A stretch of 64,000 nucleotides of DNA from Thermodesulfobacteriota bacterium (GTDB taxonomy: Bacteria > Desulfobacterota > Desulfarculia > JACQYL01). A program made the position numbers and the translations under genes. The first letter of the stretch is position 1. Every line of letters begins with the position of its first letter. The DNA lies in contig CAXXLZ010000002.1 of assembly GCA_963675595.2 (NCBI GenBank), forward strand, positions 3,360,001 through 3,424,000, in the 5' to 3' direction. Under the pieces are notes generated by a model that had not been told where the DNA came from, searched no databases, and saw only the letters and a list, made by a program, of their open reading frames with translations. Of this stretch, positions 12,959 to 31,227 are shown in pieces.

Positions 12959-12968
12959 TTCTTGCTCC

Positions 12969-13992: not shown

Positions 13993-15147
13993 TCAGCCTT
14001 GACGCAAATGATCCAGGATGAACGCCGCGGCCCTGTCCAAGGCGCCCGGTTCTCCCAAGCCGGCGGCTACATTGCGAAGGTCTCTCCTCATCTGCATCCG
14101 TCTTTCAGGGTTTTCCAGAATCGAAAGCGCTAATGTGGAGAGTTTGTCCGGACGGGCGGCGTATTGAATGAGTTCCGGCACGATGTGTCTGCCGGCAAGC
14201 AAATTGGGCAACCCCGAAGTGGTGGAATGCATGCGGCCGGTCTGAACCAGGAGATTGACCACACGCCAAGTGACTTGAGAAACGGCGGTGAGGACGATCA
14301 TGGGGATTCCCAGGAGCGTCGCTTCCAGGGTTGCCGTGCCCGAACAGAGAATCGTCAGATCGCTCGCGGCCATGGCCTGCATGCTGTTGGTCGTCAATAT
14401 GGGCGGCGGGTCCAAATCCCGCTCTCCGGCCATCCTCTCGATGGTCGCCTGGAGAAAGCGGTCGCTCACCGGCAACACGAATCGGATCGACGGATTCGCG
14501 GCGACCATGAGCTGAGCGGCATCCAGCAGGACGGGACCCAGGGATCCGACTTCCTGGGTTCGGCTGCCGGGCAGCAATGCAACCACCGTCGCGTCGTCTC
14601 CTATCCCCAATGCTTTCCGGGCATCGCGCCTCCCGGGGTCATCGACCTCTTGTATCATGTCCCGGAGGTAGTGGCCTACGTAGGTGGCTCTGCCCATCGC
14701 CCTATGGTAAACTTGGTGTTCCTCGGGAAAAGAGGTTAGAATCCGGTCGTAGCTTCGGGCGATGGGAACCGCCACGCAACGCCATACCCATACCTGGGGA
14801 GGGAAATAGGAAAAAGTGAGGATTCCTCGCGACTTCAACAAGCGGGCGAGAACGAGATTGAAAAAATCGTGCCCGATGAGCACGACAGCCGAGGGAGTGT
14901 ATTCCCGGACACGGGAAAAGATTGCCTTGAACGCCCTCAACAGACCGGGAATGGTGGCCAGGGGCTCCGTAATGCCGGCGGAACCAAGATGGGCGGTTCC
15001 GTAAAGGATTTCCACGCCCGCGGTTCTCATGTGAAAACCGCCCGTTCCCGAGATGGAAACATCCGGGCACCGGGCATACAGCGCTCGTGCGAGGTGACCC
15101 CCAATGATGTCTCCCGATACTTCCCCTGTACTTATCAGTAGTTCCAT
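13993..15147 (-). CDS. lpxB: Lipid-A-disaccharide synthase (stand-alone LpxB, possibly a paralog)
   Basis: GEVSGD, PPQVWVW, FPEE, VGH, LLPGSR..E, SGTATLE, LPNLLAG and VPELIQ motifs. Probable start ATG 15147 (ORF track 15306). Confidence 0.88.
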   Translation of the reverse strand: MELLISTGEVSGDIIGGHLARALYARCPDVSISGTGGFHMRTAGVEILYGTAHLGSAGITEPLATIPGLLRAFKAIFSRVREYTPSAVVLIGHDFFNLVLARLLKSRGILTFSYFPPQVWVWRCVAVPIARSYDRILTSFPEEHQVYHRAMGRATYVGHYLRDMIQEVDDPGRRDARKALGIGDDATVVALLPGSRTQEVGSLGPVLLDAAQLMVAANPSIRFVLPVSDRFLQATIERMAGERDLDPPPILTTNSMQAMAASDLTILCSGTATLEATLLGIPMIVLTAVSQVTWRVVNLLVQTGRMHSTTSGLPNLLAGRHIVPELIQYAARPDKLSTLALSILENPERRMQMRRDLRNVAAGLGEPGALDRAAAFILDHLRQG

Positions 15148-15361
15148 CCGTCCGTGTTGATCCGATGCAGGGTGGTGGTTGGCGATTGGAGCGATGGAGC
15201 TTCCGAAATCGTTTTGGACGGAATGCCCCGGAAAGCTTTCAAACGGCGCGTACGCTGGAACCCGTGACGCCCTCTCACATGATGTTGCAGCCTCGGACGA
15301 GGCCAAGCGCTCGATAATGTAGGCAAAACGCTACGGCCTGTCAATGATGGAGCCTGTGGAA

Positions 15362-17094
15362 CAGCGATTCTCGGTGTTGAGAATTTGGGTGTGTTTAGGG
15401 AGATTTTCCCTTTGTAGAGATGCGAGGATAGGTGGAATGAGGGTCCGATTTTGCGCATGAGAGGGGAAAAAGCGTGGTGAGGCAGAGGAAAGACCGGAGT
15501 TTTTTGGACCGAAGGCGCACCGGTCCCGTCAAAGTTCGGACCTTTGTTTGTGACCGATGGGTTATAGGAGGCCTTTTCGCCTCAGGGGGGGCGGGCGCTT
15601 TCGGGGTCCAGGACCAAAGCCAACAGGTCTTCCCACGACTCGAATACCAGAATCCGGATCGTGCAACGCAGCTGATTCCAGTACTCGGTTCGAGCACTGA
15701 ATCCCGCCCGGCATTTTTGGTACAAGGGGTCCGTCAACTCGAAAATCTGATGGAAGAAAAAAGCCACCAAGTTCAGAAGGAAAAAGACGTAAGAGAGTTG
15801 ATTCTTGCCGTGACCGAAATTGTGCTCGATATGATACCCTTGGTTCTTCAGTGTATTGAATCCTTCGTTTTCGATTTTCCATCGGGCTCTGCCGATCCTG
15901 ACCAGTTCCGCCACGTTTTCCGCGTCAACCGGCATGTCCGTGACCCAGCTGTTCCGGTAGGTGATCTTTCCTCCATTCTCCAGACGGTAGGCAAAAAAAT
16001 GGAGGTCGGGGGCATCTTCGTTTCCGTTGAGAGGCACGCCATGGACCCATTCGTAGCTATGCACCCGTTTCTTGTCGTCGGTGATCTCCAGGCCCGCGAT
16101 TTCTTGCATCCCCCGGAGTTCTTCGATCCACTCGAAGAGCACTTTGTGGTCCGCGGGTTTGGCGACCAGCACAAAGGACATGCTCGCCCGCTTCAGCTCG
16201 GCGATGAAAGGCTGTTTGGAATACAGTCCGTCACCGCCGATAATGATGTTGAGTTTGGGATGGTCCCGGCGGATGGCTTTCAATATCCGCTTCCCCGCGT
16301 TGATCTCACAATCCTGTTTTTGGACTCCATCCTTGTTCTGGATCGATTCCGGAGCCAAAGGCACGACTTGACGGCGATCCGGGTGGACCAGAGCCGCTTG
16401 CAGGATTTGATGGTGGTAGCGAATCCGTCCTTTGGAGGATTTTTGAACTAGACATCCGGGACAATGGATGGTTTCCGAGGAGAAATATTCCGACCCGTCG
16501 ATCACAATGAGGTATCGGCCATCGAGAACCTGAAACGATTCCAGATGCTTGCCTCGCTGCAAGCGTCGGAAGAAATCGGAGAAGACGGCCTTGATCTCTC
16601 CCGGATCACTCGCGTCGATCACGTCCCGCAGTTGCGTGTCCCCGGGCATCTCCGTCACGGAGAACAAGGTCTTGAGGTTGTCGCGGTGGGTCCGTTCCTT
16701 CAGTCTGCGTTGAAACTGCAGGAGCGAGGGGTCCTGAAAGTACATCATGGCAAAGGCGCTCATCAGACAATCGTGCAAAGAATAAACCGTCCGTCCCCCT
16801 CGCGGGTCCCCGACCTGCTCGAACCGACGGGACAGCGCCTTTCTCAAAGACACGAAGCTGAGGTGCTTCTTCATGTGCACCCTGGTAACCTCTACATATA
16901 GTATTCAATCTAATAAAGGCTACCATATATACACCAAAAGATCTACTTTAATTTCATACCTAATTCCAATAGGTTATGATCCTTCCGAAAGAAGGCTGTA
17001 CTCGAACCGGCATCGCCGCTTTACGAAAAAATATTCTCGAATCAGCCTTATGTCCCTCGGCTTCGCCGACTATCTTTTTCACCGGGAATTGCTG
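15362..17094 (-). mobile_element. Insertion sequence (1733 bp, DDE transposase, ISNCY/IS4-like)
   Basis: Imperfect TIRs CAGCGATTCTCGGTG / CAGCAATTCCCGGTG; 9-bp TSD CCTGTGGAA at 15353-15361 and 17095-17103. Confidence 0.9.
15582..16880 (-). CDS. DDE transposase
   Basis: N-terminal DPR...YSLHD; IDGS, GDGLY and RARWKIENEGFNTLK motifs. Confidence 0.92.
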   Translation of the reverse strand: MHMKKHLSFVSLRKALSRRFEQVGDPRGGRTVYSLHDCLMSAFAMMYFQDPSLLQFQRRLKERTHRDNLKTLFSVTEMPGDTQLRDVIDASDPGEIKAVFSDFFRRLQRGKHLESFQVLDGRYLIVIDGSEYFSSETIHCPGCLVQKSSKGRIRYHHQILQAALVHPDRRQVVPLAPESIQNKDGVQKQDCEINAGKRILKAIRRDHPKLNIIIGGDGLYSKQPFIAELKRASMSFVLVAKPADHKVLFEWIEELRGMQEIAGLEITDDKKRVHSYEWVHGVPLNGNEDAPDLHFFAYRLENGGKITYRNSWVTDMPVDAENVAELVRIGRARWKIENEGFNTLKNQGYHIEHNFGHGKNQLSYVFFLLNLVAFFFHQIFELTDPLYQKCRAGFSARTEYWNQLRCTIRILVFESWEDLLALVLDPESARPP

Positions 17095-17161
17095 CCTGTG
17101 GAAGGGGGATATTCTGAGAGAAGCGTCGTCGTCGAAAGAACACGGTCGCGCGGCAGGGAGC

Positions 17162-18067
17162 GTGTCGCGGATCAAGGCCGTTCACCTGCTTGAGGCTTGT
17201 TTGGTGATTCCTGTTGCCGGCATGGTGTCATGGTGCCCTCCATGGATCATCCGAGCCATGGCGAGGGGGATCGCCATGGTGATCGTTCAGTTTCCTTGGA
17301 GAGCCAAAGATCACGCCTTTCACAACCTGGATCATATATACGGCGGCGAGGCGCCGAATATGAGAGAAAAGAAACGGATCGTCCGGAAATTGGTGGAGAA
17401 CCTGATCGTCCAATTCTTCGAATTCGTAGGGATTCACAAGATAAAGAAAAAGAACGTTTTTCGGCAATTCGAGGTGCGCAATCGGGCGGCTTTGGACCAA
17501 GCCCTCACGGAAGGCAAGGGGGCCCTCGCGGTAACGGCTCACCTCGGAAACTGGGAGGGCGTGGCCCGGGTGGGCAAAGTCCTTGGATACGACGTGGGAG
17601 TGATCATCGGTCGTCAATGGAACCCCATTACGGATCGATGGCTGAGATGGATCCGGGAAAGCAGGGGGCAGGTCGCCTGCTACTACAAAGACACGGACCT
17701 CTTGACGCATGCGATATCCCATCTCAAGCGCAATGGGATTCTGGCCGTCATGGCGGATGAGATGGAATATCGTAAACCCTTTTATACGCCGTTTTTCGGA
17801 TGTGATTTTCCCGCGCCGACGGGTATAGCCTTACTCCATTTGCGTTACGGCGCACCCATTTTGTTCTTTTTTTGCTTCAAGGACGGCAATAAGAAGTACG
17901 GAATCGAAATCGACGGGCCCTATCATTTCGGTGGAAGCGGGCATTATGAGGAAGACCGGAGGGTCGTGATTCGTTTTGTGTATGATCGGCTGGAAAAGGA
18001 GATTAAAAAGCATCCCGATCAATGGTTCAATCTGTTCCGATCTCTCCCGGAAGGTCCTGTAAACTGA
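17162..18067 (+). CDS. LpxL/LpxP-family lipid A acyltransferase, copy 1
   Basis: AHLGNWE, MADE, PFFG and HPDQWF motifs. GTG 17162 follows AGGGAG; the ORF-track start at 16976 lies inside the IS. Confidence 0.85.
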   Translation: MSRIKAVHLLEACLVIPVAGMVSWCPPWIIRAMARGIAMVIVQFPWRAKDHAFHNLDHIYGGEAPNMREKKRIVRKLVENLIVQFFEFVGIHKIKKKNVFRQFEVRNRAALDQALTEGKGALAVTAHLGNWEGVARVGKVLGYDVGVIIGRQWNPITDRWLRWIRESRGQVACYYKDTDLLTHAISHLKRNGILAVMADEMEYRKPFYTPFFGCDFPAPTGIALLHLRYGAPILFFFCFKDGNKKYGIEIDGPYHFGGSGHYEEDRRVVIRFVYDRLEKEIKKHPDQWFNLFRSLPEGPVN

Positions 18068-18071
18068 GGGC

Positions 18072-19835
18072 TCAGACGTGTAAGGGTTTGGAGTCCGAAG
18101 AGGAAAGTGCGCAGTATCTCCGGTAGAGCCCGTCACGCTCAAGTAGTTCCGCATGACGGCCTTGTTCGACAATGCGTCCCTCTTCCAAGACGAGGATCCT
18201 GTCCGCCTCCCTTGTGGTGGACATACGATGCGCAATGATGAAGACGGTTCGGCGTTTCCGAAGGGCCGACAAGGAACGCCGGATGAGCTGGTCCGACTCG
18301 GGGTCCAAGGCGGAAGTGGGTTCGTCCAGAATCAGAATGGGACATTGCGTGAGAAAAGCCCGGGCAAGTGCGATTCTCTGCCGTTGACCGCTGGAGAGCA
18401 GAATGCCGAAGGGACCCACCGAGGAATCGTAGCCTTGCGGCAGCTTACGGGCGAATTCGTCCACGTGGGCCGCACGGGCTGCGGCGAGAACCTCTTCATG
18501 GTCGGCTCCGGGTTTGGAAAAGGCGATATTCTCCGCCAGAGACGCGTCAAACAGCACCGGTTCCTGGGGCACATAGCCTATTTGGCTGCGCAGGCCGGCG
18601 ATCTGGAATTGCGAAATATCCCGGCCGTCCACGAGAATCGATCCGGAATCGGGTTCGAGAAAACGCAGAAGCAAACCCACCAAGGTGGACTTGCCGGCTC
18701 CGCTGGGTCCGACGATGGCCAGTATCTCTCCGGGGGACGCCTCAAAGACTAGATTGGACAGCCGGAACGCGGTACCGTAAGCAAAGTTTACTTGATTGAA
18801 ACGGATGTGGCCCTCCACCGGGGGGAACGGAGGAAGCGAAACGTCGTTCACCGCTTCGGACTGCGTTTCGAGAAGTTCATCAATCCGGTCCATGGCTCCG
18901 TATGCTTTCCCCAAGTATCCGAATGCGCGGGAAATTTCGTCCACGGGGTGAATGATGAGCAGCAGTGCGGCGAAGACCACGCTCAAATTCTCAATGGCCA
19001 GTTTATGGGAGAAGACCATGGCCCCGGACCCAAGGGCGAGAATGCCGATGGATGCGAAAGTCACGCAGGAAACCACCGCGGGATTTAAAGCCCTCCATTT
19101 GTCGCGGCTGTTGAAAGCGTCCACGGTCTGCCGGTTCAGATTCCCGAATCGTTCCTCCACCATTGCCTCGCGCCCGTAGGATTTAATCTCTTTGACGCCT
19201 CGGAGCATTTCTTCAAGAGCGCCGTTCAGCCGGCTCGTTCGGGCCTGGGCCGTCTTGGTTCTTTCACGAATTCGATTTCCCGTGAAATGCAGGACCAGGC
19301 CCATGGGCGACAGGATCAACAACGTCCCCACGGTGAGCAGCCACGAATGCACGAGCATCACCATCATCAGTGCGAAGACCACGAGGAGATTGGGAACCAG
19401 GACCAGCAGTCCGGAATGCAGCCCTTCACAAAGGATATCCGTATCGGAGGAAAGTCGGGTGATCATATCGCCCAACCGATGATGCTGGTAACTCCGATAA
19501 GGAAGGAAGAGACATTTGTTGAAAAGTTCGGACCGGATTTCGCCGCCGGCTTCGTTGCTGAGTTTGAAGGAGGCGTAGTCTCTCTTGAACGTGGTGTACA
19601 GGATCAGGACCAGCAGAACGGCTCCCAGAGCCACATGGTGCGTCAGGCGTTCGGGGTCCGGATTCTCGAGAATGAGTCCGGTCAGAGCTCTTCCCCAGAA
19701 GGGCGCGAGTACAAGGCAGGAGGTGGAAACCGTGGTGAAGAGCAAGAAACGAAGGAGTTCCCATCGCCGACCCCACAGGAGGTTCGCAAGGGTCTTCATA
19801 TGGTGGGGCGTCTGCATGACGGTGTGTTGATCCAT
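18072..19835 (-). CDS. MsbA-like ABC exporter (TMD + NBD)
   Basis: N-terminal TMD; GPSGAGKS, SSGQRQR, LDEPTS and IAHR motifs. Confidence 0.9.
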   Translation of the reverse strand: MDQHTVMQTPHHMKTLANLLWGRRWELLRFLLFTTVSTSCLVLAPFWGRALTGLILENPDPERLTHHVALGAVLLVLILYTTFKRDYASFKLSNEAGGEIRSELFNKCLFLPYRSYQHHRLGDMITRLSSDTDILCEGLHSGLLVLVPNLLVVFALMMVMLVHSWLLTVGTLLILSPMGLVLHFTGNRIRERTKTAQARTSRLNGALEEMLRGVKEIKSYGREAMVEERFGNLNRQTVDAFNSRDKWRALNPAVVSCVTFASIGILALGSGAMVFSHKLAIENLSVVFAALLLIIHPVDEISRAFGYLGKAYGAMDRIDELLETQSEAVNDVSLPPFPPVEGHIRFNQVNFAYGTAFRLSNLVFEASPGEILAIVGPSGAGKSTLVGLLLRFLEPDSGSILVDGRDISQFQIAGLRSQIGYVPQEPVLFDASLAENIAFSKPGADHEEVLAAARAAHVDEFARKLPQGYDSSVGPFGILLSSGQRQRIALARAFLTQCPILILDEPTSALDPESDQLIRRSLSALRKRRTVFIIAHRMSTTREADRILVLEEGRIVEQGRHAELLERDGLYRRYCALSSSDSKPLHV

Positions 19836-19886: not shown

Positions 19887-21182
19887 TTAAAGGCTTTCAA
19901 GGACCGCGCAGCACGATTGTCCCGCCATGCCGTAGTCGTAGGAAGCCACGGCGAAGCGCTTTCGCGTGCATGGGCGGTGTTCCGCACTGATGTTCATTCG
20001 GGCGAATGCCGGATCCGGACTCCTGAAGTTGAGCGTTCCGGGGATCAGGCCGTTGGATGCCGCCATGATGCCTATAATTACTTCAGACAGATCGCCGGCC
20101 GCCGCCATGTGCCCGAAATGAGGCTTGAGCCCGCACAACGGCACGCTTCTTCCCCCCTTCTCGGAAATTGCCTGCACGGACGCCAGCTCCGATGCATCCC
20201 CGTCTTTTGTTCCATTGCCGTGCAGTACCAAGAATCCCAGATCGTCGAGGGCGGTGCCGGAAAGTTCCAAGGTCTTCGCCAAGGTTTTTTCCAGCACTCG
20301 GGGAGGAGTCGAACCGTCCACTCCATCGACGGGATATTCGAATCCGCCCGTCGTGCCGAGCACACGGGCGAGGGGTTTCGTTCCCCGCTTGAGTGCACGT
20401 TCCGCATTTCCGATGACCAGGGCGGCGCCCCCTTCTCCCGGAATAGTCCCATCCCGTTCGGCGTCGAAAGGGCTGAAGGAATGTATTCCGCGGCGGCATT
20501 GGGAGATCGAGCCGTTTCCGTACATTTCGAAATGACCCACGGGCGCAAGCAGGCTCGCAGCCGCCACAACCAACGCGATATCCACCAGATCGAGCTCAAT
20601 GCTCCTGACGGCGAGTTCCAACGCCTGAAGTCCGAAAGGCGGAACCGCAATGAGACTCGTGTTGGCCCCCTTGCATTCGAAGGCGTGGGACAAGAAACTG
20701 AAGGCGTTGTTCGGCAGGGTGTTCAGCAGTATGAAAGGCCATACGTCATGCAATACGGAGCTGTTGAACGTACGGTAGTCGAAATCCGCGGTGTGCTCCT
20801 TGGTGGCCTTGCGAAGTACCGAACTGTAGGCCCCACCACCCACCTGTGCATTATCACCGCAACTGATGAATAATCCTCTTCTTTCGGGAGGGGTTGCTTG
20901 AAACGCGTCACCCGACCGACGGACCGCCTGGTCTGCGGCCAGGTAGCCGAAAATGGAGGATCGGTTCAGGTATTTGACTTGACGCGCAAGTTGGGGCGGT
21001 ATGGATTTCACCACGTCGGCCATCGGGATTCTGCCGGCGTATTGCAGTTCCGGAGGAGCGTTCTCCATGGGCTGATGGCCAATGCCGGAGTCATGACGCA
21101 GGACTTTCTCCCAGCTTTCCATGAGGTCGGAAGCCGGCGGGGTGATCAGTCCCATTCCGATAACCGCATTGGAGTCGAGCAT
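19887..21182 (-). CDS. Beta-ketoacyl synthase-like protein lacking the catalytic Cys (CLF-like)
   Basis: KS fold (PFDAERDG..PGEGGAA, HGNGT, GHMAAAG, PGTLN); AVPPFGLQA replaces TACASG. Start ATG 21182 abuts the fabZ stop. Confidence 0.8.
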   Translation of the reverse strand: MLDSNAVIGMGLITPPASDLMESWEKVLRHDSGIGHQPMENAPPELQYAGRIPMADVVKSIPPQLARQVKYLNRSSIFGYLAADQAVRRSGDAFQATPPERRGLFISCGDNAQVGGGAYSSVLRKATKEHTADFDYRTFNSSVLHDVWPFILLNTLPNNAFSFLSHAFECKGANTSLIAVPPFGLQALELAVRSIELDLVDIALVVAAASLLAPVGHFEMYGNGSISQCRRGIHSFSPFDAERDGTIPGEGGAALVIGNAERALKRGTKPLARVLGTTGGFEYPVDGVDGSTPPRVLEKTLAKTLELSGTALDDLGFLVLHGNGTKDGDASELASVQAISEKGGRSVPLCGLKPHFGHMAAAGDLSEVIIGIMAASNGLIPGTLNFRSPDPAFARMNISAEHRPCTRKRFAVASYDYGMAGQSCCAVLESL

Positions 21183-21183
21183 C

Positions 21184-21639
21184 TCAGGAAAGACCGGCGA
21201 GGCGGGCGAGAATGTTGTAGGTGCGCCTGCACTCGTCCGGGTCAAAGAGCTGAGCAAGGGAAATCAACCCGCCGCTGAATTCAGCATAGGCATTCTTCTT
21301 ACCATCGATTTTCCCAACGGCGCGGAAAGCCGGTTCTTGCTTCTCGCTCCCCGGGAGTGAGGAAACCTCGATTTCAATCCGATCGCCGGGAAGGGCAACA
21401 TCGTAAAACTTGCACCTGGCGACTCCCGTCAAGACGAACCAGTTCTCGAAATCGGAAGACTTGGCCTCGAACCAGCCGGCGCACTGGACGAAAGCCTCCA
21501 GCACCAAGGAACCGGGAACCACTGGATATCGGGGAAAATGGAACTGGAGGTAATCTTCACTCATGGTGACGTTTTTTGTTCCTTTGATAAGGATTCCCGG
21601 TTGAAAGTCGGTGATGCGGTCCAACAGAAAATATCTCAT
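21184..21639 (-). CDS. FabA/FabZ-like 3-hydroxyacyl-ACP dehydratase
   Basis: FLLDRI, KNVT..E, HFP..PVVPGSLVLE and PGD motifs. Confidence 0.88.
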   Translation of the reverse strand: MRYFLLDRITDFQPGILIKGTKNVTMSEDYLQFHFPRYPVVPGSLVLEAFVQCAGWFEAKSSDFENWFVLTGVARCKFYDVALPGDRIEIEVSSLPGSEKQEPAFRAVGKIDGKKNAYAEFSGGLISLAQLFDPDECRRTYNILARLAGLS

Positions 21640-21664
21640 AAATGCAATTCCTGTCCGAGCGGGG

Positions 21665-22441
21665 TCACAGGCTCAAACCGCCATCTATGGCGATGGCCTG
21701 CCCGGTGATATAGTCGGCGAAGTCGGAAGCCAGGAACAGCACGAGAGGAGCCACGTCGGCGGGCATTCCCAATCGACCCGCGGGTATTCTGGACAGTATC
21801 TCGGATTCCGCCGATCCGAGTATCCTACGGGTCATATCCGAACGGACGAACCCCGGCAGCACCGCGTTGACCTGGATATTCTTTCCGGCAAGCTCCGAAG
21901 CGCAGGCGATGGTAAAGGAAATCAAGCCGCCTTTGGATGAGGCGTAAGCGCAGTTTCCGCGAGTTCCTCGGATTGCCGCAACGGAAGAGATGTTGATGAT
22001 CTTTCCATAATGACGAACCACCATAAGCTCGGTCGCATGCCGGGAACAGAGGAAAGCTCCTCGAAGATTCACGTCGTGTACTTCATCCCAATCCTTGGTC
22101 TTCGTGGTCATCAGAAGTCGATCCCTGGTGATGCCGGCATTGTTCACGAGGATGTCGAGTTTTCCATATCGGGCACGAATAAGCTCGAACAGAGATGCCA
22201 CCTTTTCCGGATCGCCCACATCGGCTTGAAGCGTTTCCGCTGCGAAGCCTTCACGCAGAAGTGACTGTTTCAACTCTTCCGCCGCTTCCGAAGACCTTCC
22301 GTAATTGATCAGGGTCACGGCACCGGCGTGAGACAGGGCAACCGATATCTGTCCGCCGATTCCTCTGGAACCACCTGTAATAAGCGCTATTTTGCCCGAT
22401 AGATCTATTTTCACAATACGTCCGCTCTCGTCTCGCCGCAC
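21665..22441 (-). CDS. fabG: 3-oxoacyl-ACP reductase (FabG-like)
   Basis: GGSRGIG, NNAGITRD, YASSK, PGFV and YITGQ motifs; start may be GTG 22414. Confidence 0.85.
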   Translation of the reverse strand: MRRDESGRIVKIDLSGKIALITGGSRGIGGQISVALSHAGAVTLINYGRSSEAAEELKQSLLREGFAAETLQADVGDPEKVASLFELIRARYGKLDILVNNAGITRDRLLMTTKTKDWDEVHDVNLRGAFLCSRHATELMVVRHYGKIINISSVAAIRGTRGNCAYASSKGGLISFTIACASELAGKNIQVNAVLPGFVRSDMTRRILGSAESEILSRIPAGRLGMPADVAPLVLFLASDFADYITGQAIAIDGGLSL

Positions 22442-22487
22442 GCGGGCATGTCCAAAGTCGTGAGTTCAAAGGCTCCGAAATAGGCGT

Positions 22488-22889
22488 TCATGGTAGGGTC
22501 GATTCCGAATACGGGAGATGGTTGTAAATGATGCGCTCAATCCCGGCGGTGCGTTCTCCCTCCACGAAAAGCACCGCCTTGCCCAATGTGTCCCGCTTGC
22601 AGGAGGAGATGATCTCCGCATGAATCCGGGCTTGGAAACCGTTTCGGAGCAGAGGGGATAGGGTCACGTTTTCTATGAGGCAGGGAACGGGCAGCCATTC
22701 ATAATCCGACGAATAACAGATGAGCCAGCCGAGGGCCTGGATCATGGTTTCCACCAGCACGGTTGGGGGAACTACGGGCGAGGGCAGGAAAGCGGTGATA
22801 CCGACCCCCATGGAGGAGGTGAAATACTTTTCACATTCGATGAATTCGCCTTTTTCCAGTCGGAGAATTCTGTCGTAACAGGAAAGCAT
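22488..22889 (-). CDS. Second hotdog-fold FabZ-like protein lacking the catalytic His
   Basis: YDRI and PVVP..VLVE.M.Q..GW parallel the neighbouring FabZ; located inside the FAS operon. Confidence 0.7.
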   Translation of the reverse strand: MLSCYDRILRLEKGEFIECEKYFTSSMGVGITAFLPSPVVPPTVLVETMIQALGWLICYSSDYEWLPVPCLIENVTLSPLLRNGFQARIHAEIISSCKRDTLGKAVLFVEGERTAGIERIIYNHLPYSESTLP

Positions 22890-22995
22890 CGCAGTTGGTC
22901 ATGTGCCGGAGGATTGGTGAGTACCGATCATGGGCCGATTCGCGTTCTTCCCAGAAGGGTGTGGTTCCCTCAAGCCCTCGTAAAGCCTACAGGTT

Positions 22996-24258
22996 TCAGT
23001 CGTTGCCGGTGCCCAAACACAAGCACGCGTTCTGGCCGCCGAATCCAAAGGAGTTGGATAGGGCCACTCGGTGCTTCCTTTTAATACGGCGTTCCGGAAC
23101 ATACCATAAATCGCACTTGGGATCAGGAAATTCGTAATTGATGGTGGGCAGGATGGTGTCTCGCTCCATGCCCATCAGAGTCAGTATGCATTCGATGACG
23201 CCGGCGGCGCCCAAAGCGTGCCCCAGCATGGACTTGTTGGAGCTTATCGGTAGGGCGGCCGCTCGGGGGCCGAAAAGCTCTTTGACGGCCTGTGTTTCCG
23301 CAACATCGTTCTTGATGGTGGCGGTGCCGTGCGCATTGATATATTCCACGTCGCTGGGGCGAAGTCCGGCGTCTGCGAGGGCCAGCTTCATGACCTGAAC
23401 GGCTCCTTCCGACCTGGGATGGATGTCCGTGATGCGGAAGGCGTCCGCGGTGGAACCGTATCCCAGAATTTCGCCTAAAATGGGAACTCCACGCGTGCGC
23501 GCATGATCCAGGTCTTCGAGAACCACCACTGCGGCCCCTTCGGACAGGACGAAACCGTTCCGCTTTCGGTCGAAAGGTCTCGACGCTTGCCCGGGTGACG
23601 CGTAGCTTTCGGAGAGCGTTCTGAGAAGCAGAAAACCCGTGAAATTGAAAGGATCGACCGGAGCGTCTCCTCCTCCGGCGAGCATCACATCCGCCGCACC
23701 GCATTGGATCAGGTGATAGGCTTCTCCGACGGCTTGAGCGCCGGCGGCGCAAGCGGAACCGATACAGAAGTTCGGCCCTTTGCATTGAAATCGTTGCGCG
23801 ATCAAAGAGGCGGCTACGTCGGGTCTCCTGGTTGTGAAATCCTGAAATGGATACCCGCCGTCCTTTTCGAGGCGAACCAGATCCCAATGCCCCGAAGTAT
23901 CACGGAAGCGATGCAGATAGGCAATTTCGGCAAGGGACGTCATTTCTCCGTGGCTTGCCAAACAAACACCGATCCTCTCCCTGGTCTCGATTTGGAGCAA
24001 TTGCGCCTGATTTGCGGCCTCATCGACCGCCGTGTTGAGAAGTCCGGCAATGCGGGAAAAGATATCGATTCTGAAAGGAGGCAGTCCTTCGGGGCGTAGT
24101 ATCCAATCATCGAGAACCTCTCCCGCTATGGTACAGGGAAGACCTTGCGTGTCGAAAGAGCGAATATGGTCGATTCCCGACGAGCTCGCCGAGCATTTGG
24201 CGAAGGTTTCCTCGGCGTTTCTTCCCAGGCAGGTGAGCATTCCATAGCCGGTAACCAC
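22996..24258 (-). CDS. fabF: Beta-ketoacyl-ACP synthase II (FabF-like)
   Basis: SACAAG, INAHGT, GHALGAAG and SNSFGFGG motifs (complete Cys-His-His triad). The frame extends upstream as KRRVVVTG, so the true start may be non-canonical near 24280. Confidence 0.9.
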   Translation of the reverse strand: MVTGYGMLTCLGRNAEETFAKCSASSSGIDHIRSFDTQGLPCTIAGEVLDDWILRPEGLPPFRIDIFSRIAGLLNTAVDEAANQAQLLQIETRERIGVCLASHGEMTSLAEIAYLHRFRDTSGHWDLVRLEKDGGYPFQDFTTRRPDVAASLIAQRFQCKGPNFCIGSACAAGAQAVGEAYHLIQCGAADVMLAGGGDAPVDPFNFTGFLLLRTLSESYASPGQASRPFDRKRNGFVLSEGAAVVVLEDLDHARTRGVPILGEILGYGSTADAFRITDIHPRSEGAVQVMKLALADAGLRPSDVEYINAHGTATIKNDVAETQAVKELFGPRAAALPISSNKSMLGHALGAAGVIECILTLMGMERDTILPTINYEFPDPKCDLWYVPERRIKRKHRVALSNSFGFGGQNACLCLGTGND

Positions 24259-24278
24259 GACTCTTCGTTTGGAGGCGA

Positions 24279-24836
24279 TCAGGATATCCCTTTCTGTTGA
24301 TGTTCCAGAAGCCAGGTCTGGACGAGGTCATCTTCGCTTCGGAAGATGGGGGGCTCATTGCAGGAACCGCAAACGATGCGGGTTCCATCCTGCAATATCC
24401 AGGAATCGCGGGCGCAGTGGACGCATCTGTCCGGTAAGGTATCCAGAAGCCAAAGGACCCGGTCGACAATGGAGTCCACCGTGATCAGCGCAAGAAGGTC
24501 TTCCATGCGCATTCCCGGGCGAAGTGCGTCGACGTCGGGGAATCTCAGCTTTAACAAGGACAGGGCGGCCGGAGTGAGTCCGCCGTCTTCGTCCAAAGCG
24601 AACCCTTCCCCGAAAATCTCCTCCATGTGGTCCAGGGCGGAGTAACGGGCCATTCTCAATCCGAAGGCCTGTTCCACATGGTAGCTGATATCCAGGAAAT
24701 CGAGGGATTCGGCGTCCAGCTCCGTGGTCAGAACGGTTTCGGGTCGTATCAGGTCTTTTTCCACGGTCAAAGCATGAGCAATGGCATCGGACACGACCCG
24801 GAAAACCTGTTCTCTTTCGATCAGCGTCTGCGGCAT
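24279..24836 (-). CDS. Atypical acyl carrier protein with internal insertion and C-terminal CxxC-x14-CxxC domain
   Basis: LDAESLDFLDI Ppant motif and ITVDSIV helix IV; CVHC...CGSC; ATG 24836 follows GGGAG. Confidence 0.85.
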   Translation of the reverse strand: MPQTLIEREQVFRVVSDAIAHALTVEKDLIRPETVLTTELDAESLDFLDISYHVEQAFGLRMARYSALDHMEEIFGEGFALDEDGGLTPAALSLLKLRFPDVDALRPGMRMEDLLALITVDSIVDRVLWLLDTLPDRCVHCARDSWILQDGTRIVCGSCNEPPIFRSEDDLVQTWLLEHQQKGIS

Positions 24837-25172
24837 GAATTCTCCCGGAAGAAGATGGAACAGGATCAAGAAGCGGATCGAAAGGGGGGAAGCCGGTCCG
24901 CCGCCTGTGTTTCGAAGGAAGATGCGCCGACACCGCCTTGTGCATACAAATCAACGTGGGCGCTTCGTTCGAGCTCCAGTCCTTACTTCCCGTTTTCGCC
25001 ATTGGTTTCCGACCATGAACCTGCGGGCAAGGTCGAGAACGTCGGCAATACGTTTACTCAAAATGAGTTTGTGTGGAGTGTCTATTCCATGCATGCCGTG
25101 TGGACGGCGGGGTACGGCGGATCCGGCCGCAGCCCCAGCGACGGTCCGTTGAGGCAGACTCGTTACTACGGG

Positions 25173-25946
25173 TTAGGCCAACGGCCTGTACAGGGTATTC
25201 CCGAGCCCCCGATCGGCCACGATGGTCTGGCCGCTGATTCCACGGCTCGTATGATCACACAAAAAGGCCACCACGTCGGCGAGTTCCTCTGGATCCATAA
25301 AGAGTTCTTCGGGTATTCGAGTCATGTCCTTCAAGTAATATCGCAGCACGCGCAGAGAATCCGTTCTCACAAGACCGCCGCAAACCGCATTGACGGATAT
25401 GTTCCTATGCCTTAAGCTCTCCGCGCAGTCTCTGACAACCGCTTCCATGGCCGCTTTCATACTCCCCAACGGATATTGCGGGTTGTAGAAGCGACTCCCC
25501 AGGCTTGAAATGAAAACGATCTTACCTTGAGTCCGTTCAAGCAGGGGAACGCCCAGTTGTATGCAGAAGATGTTTCCCAGGAAGTTGGTATCGACCAGTT
25601 GCCTCAGGTCTCGCTCGAAAAGCTTCTCGATGGGTTTGAAAGGGGCTCTCGCCGCGTTGAGGATCAGGAAGTCCAACCGTCCGAATTCGGTTTCGGCCGC
25701 CTCCATCATCAGCCGAACCGATGCCTTGGACGAAATGTCCGCTTGAACCAGAATCGCGCGTCCCCCCAGCCCGTGAACGTAAGAGACGAGTTCCTCGGCC
25801 TGGACAAGGGACGAGCCCGCCGCCTTCCTGGAGGTGACCACCAAGTCGGCTCCCAAGGAGGCGAGCTTGGCGGCGACGGCGCGGCCGATGCCTCGGGAGC
25901 TTCCGGTGACCAGAGCGACTTTGCCTTTAAAACAGAGGCGATTCAT
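25173..25946 (-). CDS. SDR oxidoreductase, FabL-like enoyl-ACP reductase
   Basis: GSSRGIG, NAA, ISSLGS, Y-x5-K (YPLGSMKAA) and GQTIVADRG motifs; first gene of the FAS block. Confidence 0.75.
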   Translation of the reverse strand: MNRLCFKGKVALVTGSSRGIGRAVAAKLASLGADLVVTSRKAAGSSLVQAEELVSYVHGLGGRAILVQADISSKASVRLMMEAAETEFGRLDFLILNAARAPFKPIEKLFERDLRQLVDTNFLGNIFCIQLGVPLLERTQGKIVFISSLGSRFYNPQYPLGSMKAAMEAVVRDCAESLRHRNISVNAVCGGLVRTDSLRVLRYYLKDMTRIPEELFMDPEELADVVAFLCDHTSRGISGQTIVADRGLGNTLYRPLA

Positions 25947-26065
25947 GCGGCCGATCTTGGAGATTCGAAAAGAAAACAGGCATATCCGGTTCCAGGACTC
26001 GAACAGAAGGAATAATCCTAACACAATTTTTCAATGCAGTTGACCCTTTTTTGAGGCGGTTAAGC

Positions 26066-27022
26066 GTGCGCGGAAAACTTCTGAGTTTCAGGACCATTGC
26101 CTACCTGTTCGAAGCGGCGGGAGCCGTGGCGGCGGGCACCCTGATATCCTTGCTGCCGAGGCGATTCCGGCGGATATTTTCAATTGTTGCCGGTACCGTC
26201 GGCTTCCATCTGGATCGACGGGACAGGAAATGGGCTTACCGGAATCTCGATATCATTTACGCGGACAATCCCCTGGACAAGAAGGAAAAAGACCGAATCG
26301 TCAAAGAACTTTTTATCAACATAGCGACGGGAGCGTTCGACTTTTCAAAACTGAATGAAGTGACCCCCAATAATTTCGATCAATTTTTTTATTATGGGAA
26401 TTTTCAAGTGATAGGGCAGGCCTTGTCTCAAGGCAAGGGAGCCATCGCGGTGAGCGCCCATTTCGGCAATTGGGAGTACTATGGAAGCATCGCCGCCAAG
26501 TACATGAACAACATCACCGCCGTGATACAACGGCAATTCAATCCGTTCACGGATTCTTATCTCACATGGATTCGTGAGAAGAGGGGCAACATCAGGTGCC
26601 TGTATCAGGATCGACCCTCGATGTACCAGGAAATAGGCAGAGAATTACGAGAAAACAGAATTCTTGTTTTCCTCGCAGATCAAAGACAATATCGTAAGCC
26701 GATTTTGGTACCGTTTTTCGGCAGACCGGCGGAGACTTCGGACGGAGTCGCCATACTACATCTTTGGTACGGCGCTCCCATTGTCTTGGCGTTTTCCGAG
26801 ATTCAACCGGACGGCAAACAAATCCTGAGGTTGGATGGTCCCTATAATTTCAAGCCCGGCGGAAGCCCACAAGAGGATTGTCAAGAAATCATGAGCTTCA
26901 TTCATGGGAAATTCGAGAAAGTGATCTCGCGGCATCCGGAGCAATGGTTTTCCTTGTTGACTCCGAGATGGGAGCTGAGCCAAGAAACCCTCAGAAGTCA
27001 CCCCTCATTGGGAGACGATTGA
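26066..27022 (+). CDS. LpxL/LpxP-family lipid A acyltransferase, copy 2
   Basis: AHFGNWE, LADQ, VPFFG and HPEQWF motifs; paralog of 17162..18067. Confidence 0.85.
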   Translation: MRGKLLSFRTIAYLFEAAGAVAAGTLISLLPRRFRRIFSIVAGTVGFHLDRRDRKWAYRNLDIIYADNPLDKKEKDRIVKELFINIATGAFDFSKLNEVTPNNFDQFFYYGNFQVIGQALSQGKGAIAVSAHFGNWEYYGSIAAKYMNNITAVIQRQFNPFTDSYLTWIREKRGNIRCLYQDRPSMYQEIGRELRENRILVFLADQRQYRKPILVPFFGRPAETSDGVAILHLWYGAPIVLAFSEIQPDGKQILRLDGPYNFKPGGSPQEDCQEIMSFIHGKFEKVISRHPEQWFSLLTPRWELSQETLRSHPSLGDD

Positions 27023-27106
27023 AAGGCGTTGGGAGTTGCTTACTGATCATCCCTCGCCAACCCCCCAGTGGCTTCCGGTGCGAAAATGGGTAATGTCCCC
27101 ATTTAG

Positions 27107-27135
27107 TTGACACGTCAAAGCGTCTTGATTATAAT
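27107..27135 (+). promoter_or_regulatory. Perfect sigma70 consensus promoter overlapping the IS1 left TIR
   Basis: TTGACA-17 bp-TATAAT. Confidence 0.85.
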
Positions 27136-27172
27136 TGCCCCGGAGTGACTTCATGTTTCAAGGGGGCAATCG

Positions 27173-27658
27173 GTGACCGAACTTGAGAGATGCTTCTGTC
27201 CGAACGAAAAGTGCAAGAATTACGGGTTGAGTAATCAAGGCAACATCGCGGTTCGCGGCAAGTACGGCAAGGACAAAAGTCGCGATCTCCTTTACTGTCG
27301 CACCTGCGGGAAGCGTTTCGCCGCCACTCAATCCAGCGCCCTGTTTGGCCTGCATCTGCCGGCGGAAACGATTCGAGAGATCATCCATCATGCAGCCGAG
27401 GGCGTAGGAGTCCGGGCCACGGCGCGTCTGCTGGCATTGGACAAGGATACGGTAAATCGGGTGATCCTGCGTGCCGGCGAGCATTGCGCGTCCGTGCTAT
27501 CCAGTCTGTTGACCTCGCTGGAGCTGACGGAGGCACAACTGGATGAGCTGTGGACCTTTGTAAAAAAAAGGAACATTCTGGCGCCGCCCAAGACCTCGAG
27601 GAGCGATACGGGCGGACATGGATCTGGACGGCCATCGATGTCCCCACACGATTGCTGA
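27173..27658 (+). CDS. IS1 InsA-like ORF (Zn finger + HTH)
   Basis: CPNEKC...CRTC and the HTH GVGVRATARLL; LDELW lies before the slippery site. Confidence 0.85.
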   Translation: MTELERCFCPNEKCKNYGLSNQGNIAVRGKYGKDKSRDLLYCRTCGKRFAATQSSALFGLHLPAETIREIIHHAAEGVGVRATARLLALDKDTVNRVILRAGEHCASVLSSLLTSLELTEAQLDELWTFVKKRNILAPPKTSRSDTGGHGSGRPSMSPHDC

Positions 27659-28269
27659 TCACGTTCTGGATTGGCGGACGAGAATTGGACGACGCCCGAA
27701 GAATGCTTCAGGATTTGACCGCTCGCTGCCGGAGTAAGCCATTGTTCGTATCGGACGAGCTGCCTCATTATGTCACGATGTTGGCGGAGTTCTTCCACAA
27801 GCAGGTCCCAGTGATGCCGACGGGGAAACCGGGCCGGCCCAGGAACCCCGAACGAGTGGTCGATGCTGATTTGGATTACGCCACAGTGCACAAAACCCGC
27901 GAGGGCGGCAGGGTGGTTAAGGTGGAGCGCCGAGTGGTTTTCGGCAGTGAGCAGAGCGTACACGAGCGGTTGGAGGGTTCGCCCAGCCACACAATCAATA
28001 CCGCCTTTGTCGAGCGCTCCAATCTGCACTGGCGTCTGTGGGATGCTCATTTGGTTCGCAAATCCCTTACATTCGCACGCTCGTGGCGCTGGCTTCGGGC
28101 CAAGTTCGCCATCTGTGTGGCCTGTTATAATTTTGTTCGACCCCATGGAACGCTCAGCCGTAGGGCAAACCGGACATTTCAGCCCAAGACCCCAGCGATG
28201 GCCGCGAACGTGACCGACCATCCCTGGTCGTTCTTAGAATTGTTGGCGTATCCGGTATCATGTCAATAA
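27550..28269 (+). CDS. IS1 InsB-like DDE domain, expressed by -1 frameshift
   Basis: -1 frame relative to InsA; A8G run at 27562-27570; WIWTAID, SDEL and NTAFVERSN motifs. Confidence 0.85.
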   Translation: MDLCKKKEHSGAAQDLEERYGRTWIWTAIDVPTRLLITFWIGGRELDDARRMLQDLTARCRSKPLFVSDELPHYVTMLAEFFHKQVPVMPTGKPGRPRNPERVVDADLDYATVHKTREGGRVVKVERRVVFGSEQSVHERLEGSPSHTINTAFVERSNLHWRLWDAHLVRKSLTFARSWRWLRAKFAICVACYNFVRPHGTLSRRANRTFQPKTPAMAANVTDHPWSFLELLAYPVSCQ

Positions 28270-28305
28270 TATGGGGACAGTACCCGAAAATGGAGGTTTG
28301 AGCAT

Positions 28306-28545
28306 ATGAGCAGAATTCGGTCCGCCATATTCGACTTCGTCAAGCTGTGGGTGGTCCTGTTCATGACCTTCCTGATCGTCAGAACGATCGCAACCCTCTA
28401 CATCTACGGACGAATCGATTTGCGACAGGTCTCCCTGCTGGAATTGCTCTTCGTCCCCTTGGGGCAGGTTGTCGCCCTATGGGTTATCGTACGGAAAAAA
28501 CCGTCGGCGTCTGCGGAATCGAGCCCTGAAGAGCATACCCGTTAA
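28306..28545 (+). CDS. Small membrane protein (2 TM)
   Basis: GGAGG RBS and two hydrophobic helices. Confidence 0.7.
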   Translation: MSRIRSAIFDFVKLWVVLFMTFLIVRTIATLYIYGRIDLRQVSLLELLFVPLGQVVALWVIVRKKPSASAESSPEEHTR

Positions 28546-28567
28546 ACGGGAGTGCCATGCATGGATA

Positions 28568-29979: not shown

Positions 29980-31227
29980 TCATCGTGGGGCTACAGGGCC
30001 TTTCGAGGGAGAGGCGGAATCCGGTACCGCAATGGTCTTCAGTATCTCTTCGGCTATGGCGCGGCTCGCTCCGGGTGGGCCCATGCATTGCGGTCCGGCC
30101 GGGGACATGCGATTTCGCAATAAGGGGTTTTCCAAGAGCCGTATGACGGACGAAGCGGCCGATTCAGGATCGTAGGAGCAAGTGATCAGCCCCTTTCGGC
30201 AAGCCTGGGCCTCCCGGTCGAGATAATTGCGCGTTTTCGCGTCCCGAGGAGGCGTCACGACCACGGGCAGACCCAGTCCCATAGCCTGCTGATTCGCGGT
30301 TCCGGCCATGCCCACGGCCAGGATGGAGGAACGAAGCACGTCCGCAAAATGCCCTTTCACAAAGCGTACGGAGCCTCCGCAGGCATGCCGCAGGGAAAGC
30401 ACCAAACCGTTTTCGCGTGATAACGAAGGACTTTCATCCACGGAATACTCGTTCGCCAACGGGCCGGTCATGAGTTGCCTCCGGATTTTGAGCACATTCA
30501 ATCCGTCGTGGGCGGCGAAAAGAAACTCCGGCGGCGGTTTCATCCCGCCACGCGCGTACACTCGAGATACGATGTCCAGCAGAACCAGAGCATTATCTTC
30601 CGCATCCTCCCGGCTTCCGGCAAGCAGGGCCGCGACAGGGGATTCGGGGGAAGTTCCAAAACGCTCGCCCGTTCCTTCCAGACCGTCCATCATGGGATTC
30701 CCGACGTATTTGTTCACGACCCCGGTCCGAGTGAGCTCCTCCGATGTTTCGGCGTCGCGGGGAAAGGTCATCGCGCAATATTGGGCAAGAAGCCGCTTTT
30801 CAAGGAAGTTGTAGCGATACGCGGGCATGAATCGGGATGATTTCGCGCACCCTACGAACAAGAACGGAGTCCCTGTGAGCAATGCGGTAAGAATGACCAC
30901 GATGTCGCCCACGGCGATCACGAGATCAAAGCATCCTCGAAAGTTCAGAGCGGAACGAATCTGGCGAAGGACCACGAGCAGGGCGCCGTGCTCAATGTCC
31001 TTCAAAACGGACCTTACGCCCTGAATGCCCGCGAGGCCTTCGCTGGGCAGGAGATTCTTCGCTCCGACAATGGACACTCCGGTCTTCGTATAACTCCGAC
31101 CTTCGCCCACCATGGGCCAGGCGGAGACTTCCGTTCCGGAAGGCGCGGATTTCAACAGCTCACGGATCAGGTTCCGGGTGATCCGATCTTCGCCGTGTCC
31201 GTTACTGATGAAAAGAATGCGGGTCAT
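29980..31227 (-). CDS. Lipid-A-disaccharide synthase-related GT-B protein
   Basis: SNGHGED, PMVGEG, LPSEG, VGD, AKS, PRD, GNPMMD, LLAGSR and MAGTA motifs, typical of the LpxB-related family common in cyanobacteria. Confidence 0.82.
   Translation of the reverse strand: MTRILFISNGHGEDRITRNLIRELLKSAPSGTEVSAWPMVGEGRSYTKTGVSIVGAKNLLPSEGLAGIQGVRSVLKDIEHGALLVVLRQIRSALNFRGCFDLVIAVGDIVVILTALLTGTPFLFVGCAKSSRFMPAYRYNFLEKRLLAQYCAMTFPRDAETSEELTRTGVVNKYVGNPMMDGLEGTGERFGTSPESPVAALLAGSREDAEDNALVLLDIVSRVYARGGMKPPPEFLFAAHDGLNVLKIRRQLMTGPLANEYSVDESPSLSRENGLVLSLRHACGGSVRFVKGHFADVLRSSILAVGMAGTANQQAMGLGLPVVVTPPRDAKTRNYLDREAQACRKGLITCSYDPESAASSVIRLLENPLLRNRMSPAGPQCMGPPGASRAIAEEILKTIAVPDSASPSKGPVAPR

Follow-up and report, generated by a model that had tools for sequence, protein, structure and literature searches.

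Acyl carrier proteins (ACPs) are among the best-studied small proteins, and their design, about 80 amino acids folded into a metal-free bundle of four helices, is treated as near universal. What becomes of that design when a carrier acquires a large internal insert and a tail bearing four cysteines (Cys4), and what such additions might be for, is the question raised by a gene in a 64,000-nucleotide stretch of the genome of a Thermodesulfobacteriota bacterium (contig CAXXLZ010000002.1, positions 3,360,001 to 3,424,000; hereafter the window, in whose numbering coordinates are given). The gene, here called ACP-Zn, occupies 24279..24836 on the minus strand, stop codon included, and encodes a protein of 185 amino acids. 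An initial annotation made from the sequence had described an ACP-like protein with the motifs ESLDFLD (around Ser44) and CVHC-x14-CGSC and a terminal helix, all of which are present in this open reading frame (ORF). ACP-Zn is a genuine variant ACP, conserved and so far uncharacterised, and its novelty lies in the extra 100 or so residues. The best overall explanation, which we favor with somewhat more confidence than doubt, is that it is the specialized, enlarged carrier of a private line resembling type II fatty acid synthase (FAS), one that probably feeds lipid A.

Translation of ACP-Zn begins at an ATG (24834-24836, minus strand) that follows, after 5 nt, a Shine-Dalgarno sequence, GGGAG (24842..24846, minus strand), read from the sequence, and its homologues begin at the same methionine in alignment. 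A word-indexed search yielded 40 full-length homologues of 176-202 amino acids with 42-76% identity, and in the resulting set of 41 close sequences S44, C138, C141, C156, and C159 are invariant. A species scan, with one genome per species, gave 172 pattern matches, of which 158 encode a relative; the best 80 were kept as genomic loci, and in every one of these the Cys4 motif lies within a single ORF. Many of the 80 loci end at contig edges, and the counts of gene neighbors reported below are lower bounds. It is extremely improbable that the long form is an artefact of annotation or read-through, or a degenerate ACP that has lost its carrier function. ACP-Zn does fall under the Pfam PP-binding cut-off, and short relatives ending after the last core helix do exist, making up 47 of the 150 best representatives in a profile search, as such a reading would have it; yet the short forms are a separate, more distant group located in different clusters, and Ser44 shows no sign of decay, being invariant. 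The artefact reading is refuted by conservation of the cysteines, by the single ORF in 80 of 80 loci, and by eight invariant columns in an 81-sequence alignment of the tail. Orthologues do not stop after helix IV, so the initial annotation's own worry about read-through can be set aside, and its central proposal, namely an ACP-type carrier that possesses a large insert and, at its C-terminus, a conserved Cys4 module, is supported by the homologue alignment. Its remark that no characterized ACP has this architecture also holds for the sources searched: Pfam and NCBIfam contain no model for the insert, the tail or the composite, and a full-text literature search, which mostly left subscription journals outside, returned no paper describing a zinc ribbon or a Cys4 tail in a carrier protein.

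Residues 1-63 (24648..24836, minus strand) comprise helix I, the loop and helix II of an ACP, as recognized by NCBIfam ACP models and by ACPs in the PDB. The NCBIfam models match residues 7-63 with E-values down to 1.2e-10, every one below its own cut-off, and the match to the Pfam PP-binding model PF00550 spans residues 15-63 only; the same model matches 32 of 34 wider relatives at E<=0.01. Ser44, the putative phosphopantetheine-attachment site (codon 24705-24707), is also retained in all 34 sequences of a wider mixed alignment. ACP-Zn is thus, judged from sequence, a divergent member of the ACP superfamily and not one that passes its models. ACPs of known structure match residues 6-62, and a profile of the family matches 119 PDB carrier sequences at E<=1, best among them 2kw2, a 'Specialized acyl carrier protein' (6.6e-12). 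An AlphaFold2 (AF2) model built on the 41 sequences has a predicted local distance difference test score (pLDDT) of 80.8 and a predicted template modeling score (pTM) of 0.76, with helices at residues 8-23, 36-39, 52-75, 89-98, 111-115, 120-131, and 168-181 and a hairpin (strands 146-149/153-156) between the two cysteine pairs. Structural comparison with VIA-align matched the model almost exclusively to carriers, solved ACPs and peptidyl carrier proteins, over residues 4-136 (Z 7.9 to 5.2; 64-91 aligned residues, 72-74 at the highest Z); scores of this size are common among helical folds, and the comparison supports the sequence match rather than standing alone. Foldseek returned the same carrier families at E>=0.09, and VIA-align and the AF2 model agree in placing the last ACP helix at about residues 120-132. 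In the ESM Atlas, 29 of 30 feature matches were PP-binding clusters, the top three being proteins of about 200-216 amino acids, mostly unnamed. Because of the ACP front half, the invariant serine, the strongly acidic character of the protein (pI 4.44, charge -18), the phosphopantetheinyl transferase (PPTase) encoded within the operon in other loci, and the surrounding enzymes, it is very likely that ACP-Zn acts as a carrier, for which Ser44 would be phosphopantetheinylated.

The front half is followed by a family-specific region, residues 64-127 (24456..24647, minus strand), which includes extra helices and the start of the last core helix and is covered by no ACP model. Between helix II and the last core helix, ACP-Zn accommodates about 56 additional residues (64-119); the initial annotation had placed an insert at this point, as the AF2 model and VIA-align confirm, and had given its length as about 50. 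The insert holds a highly conserved stretch, MARH..LEH.EE.FGEG..D..G.LT, and R64, E72, G76, E77, D82, L87, T88, R98, and T119 of the region are invariant in the 41-sequence alignment.

The insert also occurs without the tail. A profile search of 1.84 billion representatives returned 4629 matches at E<=1e-3 and 482 at E<=1e-10, and most of the weaker matches, judging from the pattern seen in genome searches, come from ordinary ACPs that align over the front half alone. When the 150 best representatives were sorted, 59 proved to be full length and to carry Cys4 at the corresponding position, 47 were short (115-165 amino acids) and lacked Cys4, and 44 were fragments or variants, the latter including a few with a longer spacer between the cysteine pairs, two long forms without Cys4, several frameshifted or chimeric ORFs and two AcpXL-type sequences. 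Named members include a Pseudomonas fluorescens 'acyl carrier protein' of 189 amino acids (WP_063343447.1) among the long forms and a Pirellulales protein among the short. The short forms constitute a sister group of insert-bearing ACPs of about 126-138 (roughly 130) amino acids that end after the last core helix. When 15 of them were aligned with 19 long forms, T88 of the G-x-L-T motif was nearly invariant in the short forms, and the long forms kept all four cysteines in 19 of 19 cases, down to 21-25% identity to ACP-Zn. The insert is, on this comparison, older and wider than the tail, since the 130-amino-acid sister group possesses it. Like ACP-Zn, the sister group combines the ACP front half, the insert down to the last core helix and adjacent ketosynthase (KS) genes; unlike ACP-Zn, it is found in radical-SAM-rich or polyketide synthase (PKS) clusters and not beside lipid A genes. 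Neither Pfam nor NCBIfam has a model dedicated to this group. The genome of the window itself encodes a 135-amino-acid insert-only paralogue (G000:C1:462002-462391; L089:9990-10394) in a PKS-type cluster (G000:C1:452001-480000) that also contains five B12-binding radical SAM genes, two HGD-D (2-hydroxyacyl-CoA dehydratase-like) genes, an Sfp-type PPTase, an O-methyltransferase and multi-KS proteins.

The remainder of the protein, residues 128-185 (24282..24455, minus strand), is made up of an LDTLP linker, the Cys4 knuckle pair with a beta-hairpin, and a C-terminal helix, as delineated by the 81-sequence alignment and the models. C138 and C141 form the first knuckle (CVHC), and 14 residues separate it from the second (CGSC; C156 and C159), which is followed by 26 residues; the cysteine codons lie within 24360-24425. 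Besides the four cysteines, the eight invariant columns comprise W146, D169, W175, and L176, and the spacing CxxC-x14-CxxC is exact in 78 of 81 sequences, the other three having a one-residue first spacer. Both knuckles are of the CxxCG type and flank the beta-hairpin in the AF2 model, which is the layout of a C4 zinc ribbon. Hairpin and helix appear both in the full-length model, where the tail has the highest pLDDT (85-93), and when the module is folded alone on a deeper alignment, where the value is 67.7. This lower confidence in isolation suggests that the tail packs on its own bundle, and the modeling leans toward a tail that is integral to a single compact fold, as opposed to a free module. 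Like the C4 zinc ribbons of ribosomal eL43 and the N-terminal part of TFIIB, the tail places two CxxC knuckles around a beta-hairpin and ends in a helix; these ribbons were the only structures to resemble the isolated tail, and did so weakly (Foldseek E 0.4-1.2, best VIA-align Z 2.6, for a model of pLDDT 67.7), and neither Foldseek nor VIA-align gave a significant match to the tail alone. In contrast to nucleic-acid-binding ribbons the tail is acidic (charge -4), and a nucleic-acid- or membrane-binding role was judged unlikely because all three segments of ACP-Zn are acidic. We know of no zinc ribbon that forms part of a carrier protein. The Cys4 site is probably structural rather than redox-active, with zinc the most likely of the metals that it might bind.

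ACP-Zn lies in a run of minus-strand genes whose predicted products suit a carrier. Directly upstream is a FabL-like short-chain dehydrogenase/reductase (SDR), a putative enoyl reductase (ER) (25173..26024), recognized by Pfam adh_short_C2 and, as best NCBIfam match, by FabL at 178 bits against a cut-off of 328; its true start is probably an internal methionine codon near 25946. The spacer from the SDR stop to the carrier start (24837-25172) measures 336 nt, compared with 94 nt in the one other locus in which it was compared (L014). KSa (22996..24258), a FabF-like ketosynthase identified by Pfam and NCBIfam matches, starts 20 nt after the carrier gene and has a Cys-His-His triad in the motifs GSACAAG, HGTAT, and GHALGAAG. 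It is followed by a hotdog-fold protein (22488..22889) that is weakly FabZ-like (NCBIfam fabZ, E 3e-4) and lacks the catalytic histidine motif of FabZ, having AFLPSP in place of HFPRYP; by a FabG-like ketoreductase (KR) assigned by Pfam (21665..22441); by a FabZ-like dehydratase that retains the histidine motif (21184..21639; Pfam FabA, NCBIfam fabZ E 1e-23); and by KSb (19887..21257), a paralogue that aligns with KSa and resembles a chain-length factor (CLF). The nucleophile site of KSb is proline in the window and, among 40 orthologues, serine in 39 and threonine in one, never cysteine. The operon ends in an MsbA-like ABC exporter (18072..19835; Pfam ABC_membrane and ABC_tran), with matches to NCBIfam MsbA_rel (E 1e-124) and MsbA_lipidA (E 1e-121) that are both below cut-off. 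Two LpxL-family (PF03279) acyltransferase genes on the plus strand frame the operon, one convergent with it (16976..18067; Pfam Lip_A_acyltrans E 1e-32, NCBIfam lauroyl acyltransferase models below their cut-offs) and one divergent from the SDR gene (26051..27022; Pfam Lip_A_acyltrans E 3e-35, also matched in NCBIfam). Further out on the minus strand are LpxB, lipid-A-disaccharide synthase, about 9 kb away (13993..15306; Pfam LpxB; TIGR00215 241.8 against a cut-off of 190.25), and a lipid-A-disaccharide-synthase-related protein about 5 kb away (29980..31227; TIGR03492 237 against 219.2). Elsewhere in this genome, which has this one long-form carrier, there are 11 further PF00550 matches.

The surroundings of the carrier are conserved, as judged from tblastn searches of the 80 loci with the window's proteins. 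The SDR is encoded next to the carrier in 79 loci and KSa, likewise adjacent, in 78; the FabZ-like dehydratase occurs in 47 loci, the hotdog protein in 43, KSb in 42, and the FabG-like ketoreductase in 33. Queries taken from loci L014 and L020 and assigned through Pfam were used for genes of the AcpS, LpxL, Lpx, and Gnn types; 40 of the 80 loci have an AcpS-type PPTase within the operon and 33 an LpxL-type gene at its end, while GnnB (14 loci), GnnA (13), LpxI and LpxA (7 each), and LpxD (5) were found directly upstream, and 47 loci have some Lpx/Gnn-type gene. The full layout seen most often runs SDR - carrier - KSa - (weak KS - hotdog - KS) - FabG - AcpS - FabZ - KSb - LpxL-type, and in Nitrospirota loci lpxD-lpxA-lpxI-gnnA-gnnB abut the SDR-carrier-KSa triad. 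Five other genomes have exactly one long carrier each, together with short ordinary ACPs.

Distant clades provide other settings. In locus L121 (G287, 8715-13727) a distant Cys4 carrier heads a set composed of a KS, an unknown protein, a type III PKS, an ICMT-type methyltransferase and a flavin adenine dinucleotide (FAD) enzyme; the set resembles phenolic-lipid (alkylresorcinol-type) clusters and suggests that a Cys4 carrier can feed a type III PKS. L122, which encodes a distant long form, has the order KR - carrier - dehydratase - KS - KS. The carrier recurs in 35 Pseudomonas-like metagenome loci, and in the one annotated (L126) a KS gene lies 12 nt after it with a second KS nearby. Since a KS gene neighbors the carrier in L121, L122, and L126 as well, ketosynthase is the sole neighbor common to all clades; the tail-less relatives also adjoin KS genes, there together with radical SAM enzymes.

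The close family is present in at least 158 species-level genomes, from Nitrospirota, Syntrophobacteraceae, Desulfarculales, Terriglobia, and other groups, and the more distant Cys4 forms extend to Pseudomonas. Distribution of the long form is nevertheless patchy. A sample of 301 genomes from the phylum of the Terriglobia locus gave 11 long-form matches, one stop-cut and one distant, and 9 insert-only matches; 289 of the 301 had some match at E<=1e-12, and most of the matches listed cover the ACP front half only.

A mechanism consistent with these observations can be proposed. Ser44 would be phosphopantetheinylated, and ACP-Zn would then carry the growing chain of a private elongation module of type II FAS character, composed of the active KSa paired with the cysteine-less KSb, the FabG-like ketoreductase, the FabZ-like dehydratase with the histidine-less hotdog protein, and the FabL-like enoyl reductase. 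The pairing of KSa with KSb is predicted from their sequences; as the operon encodes a KS pair, a ketoreductase, dehydratases and an enoyl reductase, all elongation activities would be supplied. The finished chain would most likely be handed to the LpxL-family acyltransferases, ending on a glycolipid exported by the MsbA-like transporter, and it is somewhat likely that this acceptor is lipid A or a lipid-A-like molecule. In the carrier itself, the insert (64-127) would add helices to the four-helix bundle, and the four cysteines would bind a single structural metal ion, most likely zinc, that staples the beta-hairpin and C-terminal helix onto the enlarged bundle and makes the 185 residues one compact acidic domain. 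The extra mass could provide a larger chain-shielding cavity, a private recognition surface apart from that of the housekeeping AcpP, or both; the initial annotation had suggested, for its part, that the insert may enlarge the acyl pocket.

The closest parallel is AcpXL, a specialized ACP of rhizobia whose cargo, an (omega-1)-hydroxy very-long-chain fatty acid, ends up on lipid A; in AcpXL and in AcpM, longer carriers go with longer cargo. AcpXL (NF005079; PDB 2kw2/3lmo, RPA2022) is, like ACP-Zn, a second, dedicated ACP, shares with it the serine motif (D/E)SLDFLDI, and is the top PDB sequence match of the ACP-Zn family profile. The initial annotation had pointed to this motif, correctly as far as the letters go (2kw2 reads DSLDFLDI); as a sign of kinship the likeness carries less, the similarity being confined to residues 11-62 and AcpXL nearly tied with ordinary ACPs (48.4 vs 45.0 bits). 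Membership in AcpXL was rejected, ACP-Zn scoring 34.9 bits with NF005079 against a cut-off of 83, compared with 292 for a true AcpXL-type sequence (P0089). The PDB chains of AcpXL have 101 residues and, unlike ACP-Zn, neither the 56-residue insert nor the Cys4 tail. The rhizobial operon, with acpXL at its head, runs acpXL-fabZXL-fabF2XL-fabF1XL-adhA2XL-lpxXL (PMC11901934), and the dehydratase, the two KS paralogues and the LpxL-type acyltransferase of that layout have counterparts in the window, with two PF03279 genes nearby. Compared with this layout, the ACP-Zn operon differs in having its own ketoreductase, its own enoyl reductase and often a PPTase, and in lacking an alcohol dehydrogenase; no AdhA2XL-type gene was seen in the operon, either in the window or in the Pfam-annotated loci. 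By analogy, the best reading is that the ACP-Zn system would work like the rhizobial AcpXL system.

Other systems share single features. AcpM, the mycobacterial ACP of meromycolate extension, is like ACP-Zn free-standing, longer than the four-helix core and dedicated to very long chains, and its PDB chains (99-115 residues) match the ACP-Zn family profile; its extension, unlike that of ACP-Zn, is a C-terminal tail without cysteines, with no internal insert. The tail of AcpM is flexible. An active KS with a cysteine-less paralogue, as in KSa and KSb, is likewise found in KS/CLF-like heterodimers of FAS-like lipid clusters, namely the anammox amxFabF pair and the KS-CLF of type II PKS, and a 2026 preprint reports a functional KS heterodimer in a ladderane producer (bioRxiv 10.64898/2026.05.19.726425). 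The anammox carrier amxACP, in contrast to ACP-Zn, is of ordinary size (PDB 7auf, 89 residues).

Whether the operon makes a lipid A acyl chain can be weighed against a product of another kind, such as a phenolic or aryl-polyene-like lipid that a PF03279 acyltransferase would anchor, the carrier then serving a type II PKS-like line. Aryl polyene clusters combine a KS and its cysteine-less partner with a dehydratase pair, a ketoreductase, an adenylating starter enzyme, a thioesterase and MMPL/LolA-type export, and have no enoyl reductase. The KS pair lacking one cysteine, the pair formed by the dehydratase and the histidine-less hotdog protein, and the ketoreductase of the ACP-Zn operon recall the type II PKS of such clusters; a starter enzyme, thioesterase or MMPL/LolA-type export gene was not seen in the operon, and the FabL-like reductase adjacent in 79 of 80 loci points to saturated chains. 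The distant Cys4 carrier beside a type III PKS set in L121 and the LpxL-type matches that all fall under their cut-offs, in a Pfam family broader than lipid A, also speak for such a product, whereas the lpxD-lpxA-lpxI-gnnA-gnnB genes abutting the triad in Nitrospirota, and LpxB, its relative and the MsbA-like exporter flanking the operon in the window, speak for lipid A; a product other than a lipid A chain seems to us possible but doubtful.

The role of the tail admits two further proposals, both raised by the initial annotation. The hairpin and terminal helix could be a docking module whose main job is to recruit one partner, be it the KSa:KSb pair, an LpxL-type acyltransferase or the in-operon PPTase, rather than to stabilize or enlarge the carrier. 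Zinc ribbons often mediate protein contacts, the invariant W146, D169, W175, and L176 could mark an interface, and a ketosynthase gene lies 3' of the carrier in 78 of 80 loci and in three distant clades. However, tail-less relatives adjoin KS genes too, no Cys4-specific partner recurs across clades (the upstream gene being an SDR, a KR or a DUF1684 protein), and the lower confidence of the module when folded alone suggests packing on its own bundle; a search for longer forms (E<=0.001) also found no fusion of the carrier with any partner, which is weak evidence, so that docking as the principal function appears unlikely. Nor were three long open frames of 371-523 amino acids in the 301-genome sample fusions; their extra length was high-GC sequence without stop codons that precedes the true start. 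Alternatively, the cysteines might hold iron, in the manner of the short rubredoxin-like domain of rubrerythrin, or form a zinc-thiolate redox switch, and the carrier would then serve as electron donor for a tailoring enzyme or be inactivated by oxidants. CxxC-x14-CxxC with CxxCG knuckles fits zinc ribbons and short rubredoxin-like domains alike, one of 34 relatives has a weak match to PF21349 RUBY_RBDX (E 0.0011), and most hosts are anaerobes, going by record titles; but ACP-Zn matches no rubredoxin family of Pfam even at E<=10, and the Cys4 form is present in aerobic Pseudomonas. This proposal is further disfavored because it is the tail-less relatives that are used in radical-SAM-rich clusters, whereas the tail-bearing operons encode only NAD(P)H-type SDRs as reductases and no enzyme needing an external electron donor. 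A functional metal-thiolate center that senses redox state or passes electrons is therefore quite improbable; were it real, ACP-Zn would be the first example of a redox or metal cofactor built into a carrier protein, and the supply of a special acyl chain to the outer membrane would depend on the redox or metal status of the cell.

A number of observations weigh against our preferred explanation, a metal-stapled carrier of a private elongation line that feeds lipid A. The PF00550 match to ACP-Zn reaches 15.1 bits against a cut-off of 20.8 (E 0.028), the protein is under every NCBIfam ACP cut-off, and the AF2 model is weakest at helix II (residues 45-62, pLDDT <50), its sole poorly predicted stretch. 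The operon of the window contains no PPTase, and the only PF01648 match in the genome (E<=0.001) is an Sfp-type gene in another cluster (C1:467078-467329), that search detecting no AcpS-type gene; given this single match, one broad PPTase may serve all carriers of the organism. Lipid A enters the argument through gene neighborhood only, PF03279 also covers acyltransferases that do not act on lipid A, every LpxL-type and MsbA-type match is below its NCBIfam cut-off, and 33 of 80 loci, many of them cut by contig ends, have no Lpx/Gnn-type gene within reach. The distant Cys4 forms in other settings such as L121 indicate that the architecture is not tied to lipid A, and the sister group, working with KS genes without a Cys4 tail, indicates that the tail is dispensable for the basic carrier role. 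Finally, the long form was detected at E<=1e-20 in none of 40 relatives of the window's genome, of which 2 belong to the same family, 2 to the same order, and 36 to the same class.

Transposase genes flank the lipid cluster at 15582-16880 (minus strand) and 27173-28269 (plus strand); one is a DDE_Tnp_1 gene, and the other consists of overlapping ORFs (27173-27658 and 27550-28269) with the look of a two-frame insertion sequence (IS) transposase. The GC content of the cluster (0.53-0.58) is like that of the rest of the window, so that composition gives no sign of recent transfer despite the transposases and the absence of the gene from relatives. Rfam families were not detected at gathering score in 16000-32000, and a scan of 24000-26300 for promoters and terminators gave counts at or below the shuffled expectation; the spacer upstream of the carrier gene lies within both ranges. 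Elsewhere in the window, a plus-strand gene at 5553-7232 encodes a 559-amino-acid protein with an unusual mix of caspase-like Peptidase_C14, PEGA and prokaryotic YEATS domains; 38001-40000 is a low-GC patch (0.47 vs about 0.56) with an ORF of 503 amino acids (38704-40215, plus strand) that has no Pfam match; and between the IS element and the LpxB-related gene lies a minus-strand gene (28673-29797) for a 374-amino-acid protein without a Pfam or NCBIfam match, whose C-terminus, a hydrophobic stretch followed by basic residues, resembles a sorting or anchor signal.

ACP-Zn represents a free-standing carrier more than twice the usual size of an ACP, with a conserved insert and a Cys4 site. Should the additional regions create a chamber or an identity surface, the protein would reveal by what means a private fatty-acid line is kept apart from housekeeping FAS and very long or unusual chains are protected, and the existence of distant Cys4 forms in genetically tractable Pseudomonas brings the architecture into a workable host. 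Were the operon to make a lipid A chain, an undescribed modification of the outer membrane would be predicted for widespread anaerobes, and ACP-Zn would be a second, independent solution to the task that AcpXL solves in rhizobia.

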